A DNA stretch of 64,000 nucleotides from Vicinamibacteria bacterium (GCA_963668695.2 CAXXLQ010000004.1:576001-640000), one strand, 5' to 3'; counted from the stretch's first letter, positions 1 through 59,852 are shown. A program made the numbers and translations. Notes: generated by a model from the sequence alone, not told the origin.

Positions 1-273
1 CTCTAGCGAAGGTCTCCCGGCCGGAATCAACATGTCGCACTAGCGGGGTCTCCCGGCGGGGAACATGTCGCATTGGGGAAGCGCTCTCGCCCGCATCCGG
101 CGGGCGGTGCCGGCGTGAATGCCCCCACCGGGAGGACTGGCCGGCGTTCCCAATTCGGCCTTCCCGATTCGGCGGCGCGATCGGGGTGAGGACCGTGGGC
201 CCGCAGACCCCTTTTGGTCACCAACTGCCCGGAGGTCGGCGGTTCCCTCGCTTCGGTAGAGTCCCTGAACGCC

Positions 274-1752
274 ATGCTCTCCCGACGCTTTCTCATTCCG
301 CTCTTGCTCGTTTTCGCCGGCGGCCCCGCCGCGGCGCAGGACACGCCGATCTTCACCGAGGACTTCCCTGCCGCCGAGTTCCAGGCGCGCCGCAGGGCCG
401 TCATGGACGCTCTCGGACCCGGGGCGATTGCGCTATTGCAGGGGGCGCCGTCCCCCCTCGGGTACATCCGCTTTCGGCAGACCAATTCCTTCTACTACCT
501 GAGCGGAGTGGAGACGCCGCACGCCTACCTGGTGCTGAACGGCACGACGGGCCACTCGTCGCTCTACCTGCCGCCGCAGGACGACCGCCGCGAATCGTCA
601 GAGGGACGCCTCCTGACTTCCGACGACGCGGACCTCGCCCGGGAAAAGACCGGCGTGGCCGAGGTGCACCCGAACTGGAAACTGAGCGACCACCTCGCCC
701 GCCTCGCCTGGAGTCCGAATCCGCCGGTGGTCCACACCCCGCTCGCCCCCGCCGAACTCGCGGCGATGAGCCGGGACCTGGCGACCCGCGGCAACTCCGA
801 CATCGCGAACGACCCCTGGGACGCGCGCCCCTCGCGCGAAGCGATCTTCGTGTCCCGCCTCGAGGGACGGTTCCCGCGGCTGGAGATTCGCGACCTGACC
901 CCGGTGCTCGACCGGGCGCGGCTCGTGAAGAGCGAACGCGAGATCGCCCTCATCACCAAAGCCACCCGCCTTTCCGGGTTCGCGCTCATGGAGGCCATGC
1001 GCTCCACCGCCCCCGGGATCTACGAACGGGAACTCGACGCCGTCGGGAAGTTCCTCTTCTACCGGGACGGCGCCCAGTCGGACGCCTACTACTCGCTGGT
1101 GGCGACGGGAACGAACGCCTGGTATCCGCACTATCACCGGGGGGCGAGCCGGCTCGGCGACGGCGAGTTGATCCTGATGGACTACGCGCCCGACGTCGGC
1201 TACTACACGAGCGACGTGACCCGCATGTGGCCGGTGAACGGGGTCTGGAGCGAGTGGCAGCGCGATCTCTACGGCTTCTATCTCGCCTGCTACCAGGCGA
1301 TCCTCGACGCCATCCGGCCCGGGGATGTCGCCACCGTAATGGGCGATGCCGCCACCCGCATGGAGGAGATCGTGCGGGATTGGCCGTTCACGAAACCCCA
1401 CTACCGGCCGGCGGCGGAAGCCTTCGTGGCCGCCTACCGCCGCCGCGCCGCCGGCCGCCCGAACGGGGTGGGTCACGGTGTGGGAATGGCGGTCCACGAT
1501 GTCGGCAATGCCGACGGGACGCTCACCCCGGGCATGGTATTCACCATCGAGCCGCAGTTCCGGGTGCCCGAGGACCGGATCTACATCCGCCTGGAGGACG
1601 TCATCGTCGTCACCGAAGACGGCGCCGAAAACATCTCGGAGTTCGTTCCGATGGACATGGACGCCATCGAGGCGCTGATGGCGGAACCCGGGCTGCTGGA
1701 CCGCTACCCGAGTCCCCTCGACGCCTTCCCGGACCCCGGCGGACCGCGGTGA
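274..1752 (+). CDS. Xaa-Pro aminopeptidase (peptidase M24B), secreted
   Basis: Signal peptide from ATG 274 (MLSRRFLIPLLLVFAGGPAAAQ); FRQTNSFYYLSG N-domain; metal motifs D..GYYTSDVTR, HGVGMAVHD, TIEP, IRLED. Confidence 0.85.
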   Translation: MLSRRFLIPLLLVFAGGPAAAQDTPIFTEDFPAAEFQARRRAVMDALGPGAIALLQGAPSPLGYIRFRQTNSFYYLSGVETPHAYLVLNGTTGHSSLYLPPQDDRRESSEGRLLTSDDADLAREKTGVAEVHPNWKLSDHLARLAWSPNPPVVHTPLAPAELAAMSRDLATRGNSDIANDPWDARPSREAIFVSRLEGRFPRLEIRDLTPVLDRARLVKSEREIALITKATRLSGFALMEAMRSTAPGIYERELDAVGKFLFYRDGAQSDAYYSLVATGTNAWYPHYHRGASRLGDGELILMDYAPDVGYYTSDVTRMWPVNGVWSEWQRDLYGFYLACYQAILDAIRPGDVATVMGDAATRMEEIVRDWPFTKPHYRPAAEAFVAAYRRRAAGRPNGVGHGVGMAVHDVGNADGTLTPGMVFTIEPQFRVPEDRIYIRLEDVIVVTEDGAENISEFVPMDMDAIEALMAEPGLLDRYPSPLDAFPDPGGPR

Positions 1753-1763
1753 ATCAGTCTATC

Positions 1764-1878
1764 CATATTGTATTTCGTTCCATCCGATGGAATAAATTGC
1801 AACTATATTGTCCGATATCAGGAACGGCTGACTGCAAGATGTGACAATTCATATTGCGCTACATTCCATATGATGGAA
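1764..1878. promoter_or_regulatory. AT-rich promoter with two palindromic operators, probably AbiEi autoregulation
   Basis: TTCCATCCGATGGAA (1778-1792) and TTCCATATGATGGAA (1864-1878), each preceded by CATATTG. Confidence 0.55.
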
Positions 1879-1890
1879 GGAAACGCAATA

Positions 1891-57762: not shown

Positions 57763-57985
57763 GAAATTCGCCTCTCTCTCCTGGGCAGGAAACCAGTTTG
57801 TGCATCACGCTCGCTAGAAGGAGCGGTCCCTCGATCCACGGGAGGGACGGCAGCGAACGGATCGCGTGGAAACGGTCGGTGATCCTATCAATTGCGCGCC
57901 AGTCAGGCACCGAATCCACGAACGCGCGCCAAGTACGCTCTCCGGGCCGTGGGGCTTCCGACGTCCCTGCCGATTGGAGAAGAGC

Positions 57986-59554
57986 ATGAGACACCTCCCG
58001 AGCCAAGCCCTGATCGCCGGAAGCTGCGGGCTATTCGTCGCCGTCGGCGCGGCGGCCCAGACGCCCTATCCCGTGGACCGGGAGATGGTGGCGAAGATCC
58101 GCGAGGAGGGGCTCCACCGGTCCCAGCTTCCGGACACCCTCTCCTACCTGACCGATGTGCTCGGGGGCCGGCTCACCAACTCGGCGGCGATGGACCGGGC
58201 GCAGCGGTGGGCGCTCGAGGAGATGGCCGAGATCGGCCTTGAGAACACGGTCCGCGAGCCCTTCATGAACTACGGGGCGGGCTGGGACAACGAGTACTTC
58301 TCCCTGCACATGACGGCGCCGGTGTACCAGACGCTCGTGGGCTATCCCATCGCCCACACCCCGGGAGCGGACGGACGGCAGGCGCTGGAGGTCGTCATCG
58401 CGGACGTGCGGTCCCGGAACGACCTCGAAGCCCTGCGGGGCAAACTCCGGGGAATGGCGGTCCTCTCGACGCCGCCGGCGACGGTGGACCGAACCCGTTT
58501 CGCTACCGGAACCCCGCCGCGGACCGACGACGAGATGCGCCAGCTCGCCGAGAACGTGCTACCCAGGTTGGCCCAGGATCCCCTCTTCAGCAGCGAGTAC
58601 GCCGACCTTCCGCCCCATCCGGACGCCCTGACCCCGGTCGAACGTCTCGAGTTCTACATTGAAGAGGGCGCAGCCGCAGTGCTCGAGTCCCACAGCGGCT
58701 GGCCGGGCGCCGTGCGGGGGTTCGCCCGCCCGGGCGCCAAGGTGGACAGGTGGGACCGCGACGCGACCCTCGCTTCGCTGCCGATCATCGCGATCACCCC
58801 GGAGCACTACAACCGGATGTACCGCATCCGGCGGCGCGGCCTGCCGGTGACCATCGACCTCGAAGTCCGCAATCGGCACGGAGAGGAAGCGAGCGAGGCG
58901 AGCAACGTCCTGGGAGAGATCCCGGGGTCGGACCGCGCGGACGAAATCGTCATGCTCGGCGCCCATCTCGACAGTTGGCACGCGAGTCCGAACGCGAGCG
59001 ACAACACCTCGGGGGTGGCGGTCATGCTGGAGGCGATGCGCATCCTGAAGGCGGTCGGCGCTCAGCCGCGCCGGACGATCCGAATCGCGCTCTGGTCAGG
59101 CGAGGAACAGGGCATTTTCGGGTCGCGGGCCTACGTGAAGAAGCATTTCGGCGATCCCGGCGATCCGGAGGTGGGGACGAAACCCGACTACGACAACTTC
59201 TCCGTGTACTTCAATCAGGACTACGGCCCCGGCCGCTACCGGGGCGTCTGGCTCCAGGAGAACGAGCACGTGCGACCGATCTTCGAGGCCTGGATGGCCC
59301 CGTTCCACGACTTCGGGATGACCACCCTGGCCCCGGGAAGCGTGGGGAGCACCGACCACGTGCCGTTCGACGACGCGGGGCTGCCAGGTTTCCAGTTCCT
59401 GCAGGCGCGGGTGGGCGGCACCGGGGGCCACACGAACCTCGACTTCTACGACACCCTGCCGATCGACGACCTGAAGAAGAACGCCGTGGTGGTAGCGGCG
59501 TTCGTGTACCACGCGGCGATCGCGGACGAGAAGCTGCCGCGAAAGGGGCGATAG
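57986..59554 (+). CDS. Secreted M28-family metallopeptidase
   Basis: GAHLDSWH, SDN..G, SGEEQG, STDH..F. Confidence 0.88.
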   Translation: MRHLPSQALIAGSCGLFVAVGAAAQTPYPVDREMVAKIREEGLHRSQLPDTLSYLTDVLGGRLTNSAAMDRAQRWALEEMAEIGLENTVREPFMNYGAGWDNEYFSLHMTAPVYQTLVGYPIAHTPGADGRQALEVVIADVRSRNDLEALRGKLRGMAVLSTPPATVDRTRFATGTPPRTDDEMRQLAENVLPRLAQDPLFSSEYADLPPHPDALTPVERLEFYIEEGAAAVLESHSGWPGAVRGFARPGAKVDRWDRDATLASLPIIAITPEHYNRMYRIRRRGLPVTIDLEVRNRHGEEASEASNVLGEIPGSDRADEIVMLGAHLDSWHASPNASDNTSGVAVMLEAMRILKAVGAQPRRTIRIALWSGEEQGIFGSRAYVKKHFGDPGDPEVGTKPDYDNFSVYFNQDYGPGRYRGVWLQENEHVRPIFEAWMAPFHDFGMTTLAPGSVGSTDHVPFDDAGLPGFQFLQARVGGTGGHTNLDFYDTLPIDDLKKNAVVVAAFVYHAAIADEKLPRKGR

Positions 59555-59738
59555 TGGTTCGGGCTATCCAGGCAGATTGGTTCCGGCGGTGCTGCGGCCG
59601 GGGGTGAACTCGCCGTCCCCGCATACGTCCGGGCCGTAATCGAGAGTAGCCGGGTGGGTCTCGCGGCCTTCGGCCGCGATGCCGGTCAGAGACCGGCCCA
59701 GTTCTCCCGGTGGGGGTTCCGCTGTCGCGCGCCCTTAA

Positions 59739-59852
59739 CAGCCTGTGGTGAAGCCCCGGCGGCGTTCGAGCGGCGATGCATCCCGGCTGAACCGCCCCCC
59801 CACCGGGAGAACTGGCCGCTCTCGGCGCTCACCCGGGTTCCACCACCGGCTG
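59739..59852 (+). mobile_element. MITE family 1, internally deleted copy J (114 bp)
   Basis: TTAA/TTAA flanks; core lost between two forward 18-mers. Confidence 0.85.

Follow-up and report, generated by a model that had tools for sequence, protein, structure and literature searches.

An 18-nucleotide optional module in two intergenic repeat families of sponge-associated Vicinamibacteria

The 18-mer in the window and in related genomes

A 64,000-nucleotide stretch of a Vicinamibacteria genome (GCA_963668695.2, CAXXLQ010000004.1:576001-640000; hereafter the window, positions 576001-640000 of contig C4) is scattered with copies of one 18-nucleotide sequence, CCCCACCGGGAGAACTGG, which we call the unit. 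The source genome (G000) is a metagenome-assembled genome (MAG) of 4.10 Mb in 4 contigs, with about 67% G+C, 91.7% complete and with a contamination figure of 9.3%; its relatives are designated G001, G004, G009, G014, G015, G018 and G019. With up to two mismatches, 46 copies lie in the window on both strands (39 exact, four with one mismatch and three with two), in agreement with the roughly 45 that a first-pass annotation had counted by eye, whereas shuffled windows contain 0.01 on average and none of 100 shuffles reaches 46. As GC nearly always precedes the 18-mer, the unit is effectively a 20-mer. Within a clade of sponge-associated Vicinamibacteria, it is an optional module, constrained in sequence, that two intergenic repeat families carry: a miniature inverted-repeat transposable element (MITE) and a hairpin family resembling repetitive extragenic palindromes (REP-like). 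In both it occupies fixed positions, here called slots. The repeats of the window are given below, with the state of the orthologous sites in G001 and G004.

123..140, plus strand: REP-like hairpin holding a unit with one mismatch; in G001 the orthologous slot is empty (gtgaac-A-ccggcgttcc).
2850..3052, plus strand: MITE with a single unit in slot 4b (2995-3012) and the empty alleles at slots 1 and 3; absent in G001 and G004.
3732..3992, plus strand: full MITE with four units in alternating orientation, 3760(-), 3812(+), 3876(-) and 3932(+); the G001 site is empty (ggctTGAgcc), and the G004 ortholog is a MITE with other slot states.
9980..10237, plus strand: MITE in which slots 1 and 3 each hold a unit and slot 4a a double (10155-10190); four slots differ from the G001 ortholog, which has two extra units elsewhere, lacks the double and carries a 17-nt unit at slot 4b.
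12042..12500, plus strand: MITE dimer with 71-bp units, 18-mers at 12138, 12365 and 12436; G004 has a monomer with empty slots (T versus [unit]GC at slot 4b, ATA versus GC[unit]C at slot 3).
35377..36162, plus strand: array of three MITE-derived units of about 202 bp and then three 71-bp units, with 14 18-mers, three of them in tandem at 35607-35660; G001 and G004 both lack the entire array at their orthologous sites.
39042..39231, no strand assigned: REP-like hairpin elements with units 39042(-), 39075(-) and 39214(+); in G001 the slot of the second is empty (ccgg-t-cttcagacc), and the third holds a 21-nt insert resembling an IS110 right end.
46395..46651, plus strand: diverged MITE, filled at slots 1 and 3 and holding a double at slot 4a (46570-46605); G004 has identical states, and G001 lacks slot 1 and the double while keeping copy-specific bases 6 nt from the junction.
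48519..48733, plus strand: MITE with slot 3 only filled (48632-48649); absent in G001 and G004.
59698..59815, no strand assigned: REP-like element with unit 59698(-) beside a short MITE derivative with unit 59798(+).

The tandem units noticed on first reading are present at 10155 and 10173, at 46570 and 46588 and, as a triple, at 35607, 35625 and 35643, and the unit splits the REP-like elements at 123 and 59698 as had been described. Contigs of two public runs (X1 and X5) join 46394 to 46652 and thus come from strains without that MITE; a contig of X5 likewise joins 48518 to 48734. The 71-bp tandem unit is composed of a MITE end, the 18-mer and 26 nt, and is arrayed in the window at 35960-36162. 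At about 55555-55620, a tandem repeat of about 10 nt (ggatcccct-like) directly follows the unit at 55529; the G001 ortholog does not have this repeat.

The 18-mer observation is real. A genome-wide count, one of the checks suggested with the first-pass annotation, gives 1,566 copies in G000 at up to one mismatch (775 forward and 791 reverse), 1,288 of exact sequence and 1,679 at up to three mismatches, with none for the backwards-read control. All 15 same-genus genomes carry the unit, in 8 to 776 copies each (776 in G004, 259 in G018 and 70 in G019), many of the low counts coming from fragmented short-read MAGs. It is present in five of nine further genomes of the family and in several MAGs labelled only Acidobacteria or Acidobacteriota, and in none of 16 genomes from two other families of the order. 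The exact unit is common to several genera, with dialect-like variants that include CCCTACCGGGAGAACCGG and GGAGGACTGG. The part of the window from 44800 to 49000 is contained in contigs of 15 public runs from seven studies. In the contigs of four runs (four studies), repeat bins have depths of 2,300 to 223,000 against 10 to 530 in most single-copy bins, and are about 100-1,000 times deeper than unique bins; these contigs break inside repeats, and they show only the presence of the repeats and the presence or absence of whole MITEs. Its occurrence in every one of the 15 congeners searched, and in run contigs of seven studies, shows that it is not a library adapter, which had been named at the outset as one way in which the observation could fail. 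The wider idea that sequencing or assembly created it can practically be dismissed, given its recurrence in independent assemblies of many MAGs, short-read and chromosome-level alike, the excess depth of the repeat bins and its conserved slots common to species.

A few occurrences lie outside this distribution. The phage contigs of IMG/VR hold a single exact match, which we treated as chance. Single matches in two actinobacterial genomes and one Acidimicrobiaceae MAG (L034, L064, L070) have unrelated flanks and are chance-like, and a contig of a MAG labelled Gammaproteobacteria (L044), which contains a REP-like element with the unit, is probably misbinned. In a more distant Vicinamibacteria relative (L013, L014, L028, L053), 13-nt partial tandem copies, CCGGGAGAACTGG, follow the unit, the variant CCCTACCGGGAGAACCGG sits at slot 1, and the canonical unit is found at position 44, a rare slot in G000. 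No published account of the 18-mer was found in the literature under the genus name, pieces of the motif, or repeat, sponge and Acidobacteria topics (supplements being outside reach), the matches being general papers on REPs and MITEs.

Slots, alleles and change in place

None of the 1,679 copies found at up to three mismatches is flanked by unique DNA on both sides: repetitive DNA borders 1,588 of them on each side, and the remaining 91 lie at repeat ends. Insertion into unrelated unique sites, as expected of a transposon, is thus seen for no copy. The main carrier, the MITE, measures 187 bp without units and has the ends AACAGCCGGTGGTGRAACCC. Comparison with orthologous empty sites reveals insertion at TNA and a duplication of 3 bp, often on the stop codon of a gene, where a stop is regenerated: the empty site ggctTGAgcc of G001, for example, corresponds to TCA...TAA in the window and to TAA...TGA in G004. 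The presence of whole MITEs varies among G000, G001, G004 and the strains in public runs, and G000 has 151 copies per Mb versus 98 and 88 in relatives. The second carrier is a REP-like hairpin family (GGAGCGCCGG TCTTCAGA CCGGCATCGC...), which bears the unit in either hairpin arm and in two or three further places, about four or five slots. The MITE has about eight slots, each also fixed in orientation. Their map was obtained by placing the 1,419 unit runs of C4 on the unit-free MITE consensus.

MITE position 28, minus orientation: 290 unit runs.
MITE position 44, minus orientation: 3 unit runs.
MITE position 62, plus orientation: 38 unit runs.
MITE position 72, plus orientation: 2 unit runs.
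MITE position 108, minus orientation: 298 unit runs.
MITE position 139, plus orientation: 178 unit runs.
MITE position 146, plus orientation: 143 unit runs.
MITE position 149, minus orientation: 8 unit runs.

Five major positions (28, 62, 108, 139 and 146) take up 947 runs and three minor ones 13; "at least six" MITE slots had been noted on first reading. The 402 runs unmapped to the MITE belong mostly to REP-like elements or diverged MITEs. Single units make up 1,280 of the runs, with 135 doubles, two triples, one run of four and one of five; the two longest lie at ordinary slot-4a sites, and no master array or locus was found among the C4 unit runs. With optional units held at fixed positions and in fixed orientations, the carriers have the makeup of a mosaic modular intergenic repeat of the BIME or BOX kind.

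Each slot has one empty and one filled allele, with fixed junction bases that are specific to the slot, and these alleles are identical across the three species G000, G001 and G004 ([u], the unit).

Slot 1: empty GGC-GT-TCG, filled GGC-[u]GC-TCG.
Slot 3: empty GG-TAT-TCC, filled GG-G[u]GC-TCC.
Slot 4b: empty CCGG-T-GAGG, filled CCGG-[u]GC-GAGG.
REP-like slot: empty CCGG-T-CTTC, filled CCGG-[u]GC-CTTC.
Position 44: empty TCC-AT-CCC, filled TCC-[u]GC-CCC.

On inspection, the unit has no inverted ends, and the filled and empty members of a pair differ by the replacement of 0-3 nt, with no duplication, unlike a MITE or other transposon with its terminal inverted repeats and target-site duplication. 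The coexistence of two slot-1 alleles (ACGCGGC/GTTCG and ACGCGGC[18]GCTCG) is as first quoted, and the rewriting of flanking bases reported at the same time is real and invariant (GG-TAT-TCC versus GG-G[18]GC-TCC). At slot 4a, the double is a pure insertion, GGGC[u][u]GCC, whereas the single brings an upstream G-to-A change, GGAC[u]GCC. In G000, G001 and G004, respectively, the single reads GGAC[u] in 22/24, 3/6 and 4/4 cases, the double always reads GGGC (45/45, 13/13 and 5/5), and the empty allele reads GGGC in 78/80, 58/58 and 22/22. A base change tied in this way to the number of units is expected from the copying of existing alleles and not from fresh insertion.

Changes in slot state are found within the G000 assembly itself. 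Contigs C1 (144.5 kb) and C3 (31.2 kb) are haplotigs of C4:304184-421223 and C4:3505137-3538141, with identities to C4 of 98.1-99.9% and 97.6-99.7%; the assembly therefore holds more than one strain, which fits the contamination figure. At C3:19420-19840, both slot-3 positions of a MITE dimer are empty and those of C4 are filled (ATA versus GC[u]C), with no further difference within about 80 nt of either position. The other haplotig differences are two at slot 4a, one change in the number of 71-bp units and two larger deletions between direct repeats. The 71-bp array at C1:82194-82954 differs from that at C4:365025-365571 by three units.

The identity to G000 in the region of the window is about 95-96% for G001 and about 92-95% for G004, and the orthologous slots differ in 10 of the 32 classified against G001 and in 10 of 33 against G004 (about 30% at a divergence of 5-8%), after 33 and 46 rows, respectively, were dropped because their alignment was partial or non-orthologous. 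The claim that the unit is gained or lost independently and precisely inside unrelated repeat families is thus borne out at orthologous repeat copies. Five three-way blocks are informative, with unit counts in G000/G001/G004 of 200, 202, 101, 001 and 001. If the tree is ((G000,G001),G004), as assumed, slots have apparently changed in both directions, by gain and by loss. In block 101, the G001 copy carries the exact TAT empty allele, so that the loss, if it is one as the assumed tree implies, must have been templated. Slippage was considered as the cause of losses at slot 4a and rejected on inspection, as the GGGCC repeats that flank the slot predict another product.

A larger comparison covered 1.28 Mb of G004, with substitutions and gaps counted apart and with 64 and 36 flanks passing the far-flank filter. 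The substitution frequencies beside changed and unchanged slots were 0.050 and 0.050 at 3-8 nt from the slot, 0.038 and 0.040 at 8-15 nt, and 0.043 and 0.046 at 15-30 nt. For the 13 changed slots whose flanks are clean on both sides, G000 and G004 disagree at 16 of the 702 positions lying 3-30 nt away. The events that change a slot so touch only the unit and 0-3 junction bases. An excess of mismatches at 8-30 nt from changed slots, which had appeared in a first analysis as a signal of co-conversion, consisted of gap columns only and not of substitutions.

These observations bear on the possibility that slot states were fixed when MITE subfamilies arose and have since been spread by MITE transposition only. 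The concentration of slot use on a few positions, a bias of the backbone (the CA variant beside slot 3 is filled in 3 copies and empty in 49) and the higher density of MITEs in G000 are in keeping with it. However, orthologous MITEs recognizable by the copy-specific bases that they retain are in different slot states in different species and haplotigs, and slots 3, 4a and 4b are found in all 12 combinations of their states, which makes such static differences a very improbable explanation.

The unit is much less variable than the sequences that carry it. Its per-site diversity is 0.6% versus 12.1% in the upstream backbone (312 slot-3 copies), and in 34 orthologous pairs of units 4 of 612 sites differ versus about 4.4-5.3% in the flanks (a 35th pair, with a 21-nt insert, was left out); the unit thus evolves about seven times more slowly than carrier and flanks. 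We infer that some sequence-specific constraint keeps it constant, possibly the pairing of hairpins or a protein that recognizes it. A single unit with 2 nt on each side is predicted to fold poorly (-1.4 kcal/mol, z +0.70, with 153 of 200 shuffles folding at least as well), and the unit is not itself an imperfect palindrome, as REP sequences and REPINs (REP doublets forming hairpins) are. Inverted pairs of units form 20-bp hairpins, with spacers of 31, 38 and 34 nt in 148, 63 and 28 cases, an arrangement of inverted doublets of the REPIN type. Folded as single-stranded DNA, the full MITE at 3732..3992 is predicted to form two unit-pair hairpins (-75.1 kcal/mol, z -6.1), and the triple unit with loop and partner unit reaches -35.4 kcal/mol (z -4.6). 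Among 386 MITEs, slot 3 tends to be filled together with its inverted partners of slot 4 (odds ratio 3.0, p = 6e-7), whereas slots 4a and 4b, 7 nt apart, are independent (odds ratio 1.0).

The constancy of the unit raises the question of whether it is a recognition signal, either of the DNA-uptake type or the binding site of an abundant DNA- or RNA-binding protein, maintained and spread by molecular drive or selection, its presence and absence then reflecting biased replacement during recombination with the DNA of related strains. The approximately 1,500 copies, often in inverted pairs, the MITEs at stop codons, an exact sequence with dialect-like variants across several genera, the slow evolution and the polymorphism between strains would all suit this role. 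Known uptake sequences, however, lie in genes and arise by point mutation, while the unit is never in unique DNA, from which its absence from coding DNA would follow, and comes and goes in whole blocks of 18-36 nt. This proposal appears improbable to us.

IS110 elements and candidate enzymes

IS110-family elements are guided by bridge RNAs and target repeated sequences. Three subtypes were found, one in the REP-like hairpin and two inside the 18-mer at its CC core.

C4:482375-483622: intact IS110-family gene (DEDD_Tnp_IS110 and Transposase_20, 415 aa), element in a REP-like hairpin.
C4:482118-483893 of G000 (L147 1618-3393): IS110 locus.
G004:C1:441495, 2427303 and 3584343; G000:C4:311968 and 793855: sites of the third IS110 type.

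The second type has the junctions AGCCCCC/TATACG...GGAAAGT/CCACCGGGAGAACTGG in the copies examined, 3/3 in G014 and 2/2 in G009 (L156-L160), and the third, with three copies in G004 and two loci in G000, has the right end ...TTGCATTCTCATGGAGAGT/CCACCGGGAG. The position of interruption is constant, and rejoining the flanks of the elements restores the unit, as is the case for a target site. The ends of types A, B and C (TATAC...; ...GGAAAGT, ...GAAGGT and ...GGAGAGT) are not the unit, which is their flank. The first-pass annotation had asked whether the 18-mer might be an excision footprint and had proposed looking for longer elements whose two ends join to give it. Longer elements of a related kind do exist, as the flanks of these IS110 copies give the 18-mer when joined; it is however the interrupted target and not a scar. 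The 21-nt piece inside the G001 unit orthologous to 39214 matches the right end of the third type.

When the upstream non-coding ends of the elements are compared by eye at matching places, the variable segments of each equal its own target flank and others equal its own ends. The left end of type B holds CGAGCCCC, its target flank being GGAGCCCC, and that of type A holds, at the homologous place, ACCGGAGG, which is equal to its own flank ACCGGAGG. These segments may be read as guides of the bridge-RNA type, a reading made by eye only; no Rfam family was found in the window or in five IS110 loci. The unit would accordingly be described as a putative programmed target of IS110 elements. IS110 is unlikely to have spread it, because there are more than 100 units to every IS copy and because G019, with its 70 units, has no IS110 match. 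At G000:C4:793500-793900 and 311600-312000, a MITE is nested in IS110 between the stop codon of the transposase and the right end of the element, which is itself inside an 18-mer, making three nested layers.

Two enzymatic routes had been put forward for the unit, insertion templated by reverse transcriptase (RT) and pasting of single-stranded DNA by an HUH enzyme of the RAYT type (REP-associated tyrosine transposase). Searches of G000 gave no match to RVT_1 (PF00078), which speaks against the former, and none to Y1_Tnp (PF01797), although haplotigs 97.6-99.7% identical differ in slot state. In relatives, a RAYT-like Y1_Tnp gene, weak but above threshold, is present in 13/15 congeners and in 2/5 unit-bearing genomes of other genera of the family, that is, in 15/20 unit-bearing relatives and in 0/5 family genomes with no unit or one copy, kin that are not independent. 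It is missing from G000, G004, G015, G018 and G019, all of which bear units. Its protein carries HVH and, at the C terminus, WPWSS, motifs that we take to be RAYT-like. The gene of G001 lies at C17:2354585-2355424 (L205 976-1815; further loci L204 and L206-L211) and has no DNA match in G000, at the orthologous locus or elsewhere; at that locus (C4:2177795-2178537) the neighbouring gene is kept and the RAYT gene is gone. Among eight RAYT loci of about 3.2 kb each, the core of the unit lies within about 1.5 kb in one only (L204), and upstream of the G001 gene there is a REP-like element, not the unit. The gene is thus likely the partner of the REP-like family and not of the unit, and is a lead to that extent. 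A cognate RAYT in the same genome, flanked by the repeat, as is the rule for REP/REPIN systems, is not what G000 presents. The only match to a TnpB-type domain in G000 is below the cut-off. DDE_Tnp_1 elements were considered as the partner of the MITE and rejected, as their inverted ends (L144) do not match those of the MITE, and the family searches in G000 did not find its autonomous partner.

Such enzymes would be needed if the unit were a true micro-mobile element of 18-20 nt, inserted and excised precisely in trans and in fixed orientation, into the hairpin-arm targets (C/G)GG^T and GAAC^GCCG, the enzyme being perhaps a RAYT-like HUH transposase, perhaps another. This explanation would account for the clean gains and losses at orthologous copies, without excess substitutions in the flanks, for the lack of microhomology at slot 4a on inspection, for the independent assortment of slots only 7 nt apart, for the uniformity and slow evolution of the unit, which looks as though a master sequence kept renewing it, for the similar targets and fixed orientation across unrelated slots, and for the distribution of the RAYT-like gene among relatives. 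It is at odds with the lack of any copy in unique DNA, with the existence of two alleles per slot whose slot-specific junction changes a common insertion chemistry does not predict, with the switching of slots between haplotigs of G000, which has 1,566 units and neither Y1_Tnp nor RT (G004, G018 and G019 likewise lack Y1_Tnp), with the rarity of the unit core near RAYT loci, and with the inability of the single unit to form a hairpin of its own. We regard it as unlikely, although deserving serious weight. A fuller version, in which the unit is the smallest known mobile DNA, pasted into and removed from hairpin arms in trans, and serves also as a building block of repeats and as an IS110 target, seems to us unlikely in about the same measure or a shade more so; it would imply three nested layers of mobile DNA.

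Proposed templated copying and comparison with known systems

We tentatively favor a different explanation, namely that homology-templated repair, and not transposition, transfers the allele states from one paralogous repeat to another. Slot-specific junction alleles shared by species, the lack of copies in unique DNA and switching without RT or RAYT fit the copying of alleles that already exist, and the specificity of the junctions (e.g., the slot-4a single with its G-to-A change) argues against fresh insertion of the transposase-like kind. In such a process, filled and empty alleles would pass from one paralogous copy to another when two near-identical backbones form a heteroduplex, in which each loop of 18-36 nt may be kept or removed separately; short-patch conversion or template switching could be an alternative route. 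Breakage or stalling at the 20-bp hairpins of inverted unit pairs is a plausible trigger. New slots would be rare, arising perhaps by microhomology-mediated copying at CCGG.../...GC, and amplification of the MITE and REP-like elements would then multiply them.

Several findings weigh against this proposal. Co-conversion is not visible, the flanks of changed and unchanged slots having equal substitutions in the G004 comparison; the conversion tract would thus extend only a few bases beyond the unit, or the donor would be a near-identical paralog, and clean flanks are equally expected from a precise, unit-specific insertion and excision. Slots 7 nt apart are in equilibrium, whereas ordinary RecA-dependent conversion would co-convert them. 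The uniformity of the unit relative to its carrier goes unexplained by neutral concerted evolution, and the clean differences with G004 are skewed, the extra unit being in G000 in 11 of 13. The same unit stands in non-homologous contexts (eight MITE slots and several REP-like ones), and several slots share the look of a target, (C/G)GG followed by one to three bases including T, with fixed orientation; homologous copying cannot explain how slots were first seeded. Taken as a whole, the clean changes, independent slots, uniform unit, similar targets and gain bias keep a unit-specific mechanism open.

If templated copying holds, the unit would provide an unusually clear natural case of presence/absence alleles that switch fast in dispersed repeats. 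The two states of a slot differ by a 20-bp hairpin arm at the ends of genes and could change where transcripts end within a short time, and the system could serve as a gauge of ectopic repair among the short repeats of an uncultured symbiont. If instead the unit is a micro-mobile element, the size limit for mobile DNA would become smaller. On either reading, the unit is a conserved, multi-copy and apparently harmless landing site to which IS110 elements have been redirected, which bears directly on the selection of safe targets by bridge-RNA recombinases.

Among known kinds of repeat, mosaic intergenic repeats and REPINs appear to be the closest. Optional modules are a feature of the mosaic intergenic repeats of Escherichia coli (bacterial interspersed mosaic elements, BIMEs) and of Streptococcus pneumoniae (BOX elements). 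The repeats described here are likewise intergenic and modular, with short modules in fixed order and orientation that are optional or variable in number, and units in alternating orientation form hairpins. They differ in that two unrelated carriers, of which one is a MITE, harbor one and the same non-palindromic 18-mer at many slots, in the discrete junction alleles per slot across species, in the high turnover at orthologous copies, and in a module far more conserved than its carrier.

The DNA uptake sequences of Neisseria and Haemophilus are similar in copy number, in inverted pairs near gene ends and in genus-level dialects; the unit, unlike them, is not in unique DNA and is gained or lost as a block. 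Quasipalindrome template switching and the repair of heteroduplex loops resemble the present case in the templated, enzyme-independent gain and loss of blocks at hairpins with co-changed junctions. The junctions that they predict fit only in part, slot 3 having one extra G, and neither process is known to keep up some 1,500 identical blocks genome-wide.

With the REP/REPIN-RAYT systems (10.1101/2021.07.10.451892, 10.1101/2022.05.22.493013), the unit shares its hundreds of short repeats, hairpins of inverted pairs, vertical persistence in a clade and a RAYT-like gene in most congeners. It departs from them in that G000 lacks a RAYT, the unit is no palindrome and does not flank the RAYT genes of relatives, and it is nested in other repeats and never free-standing. 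Finally, the targeting of IS110 elements by bridge RNAs has a counterpart in G009, G014, G004 and G000, where such elements interrupt the unit at a constant CC core; this comparison would explain who uses the unit, and not how it spreads.

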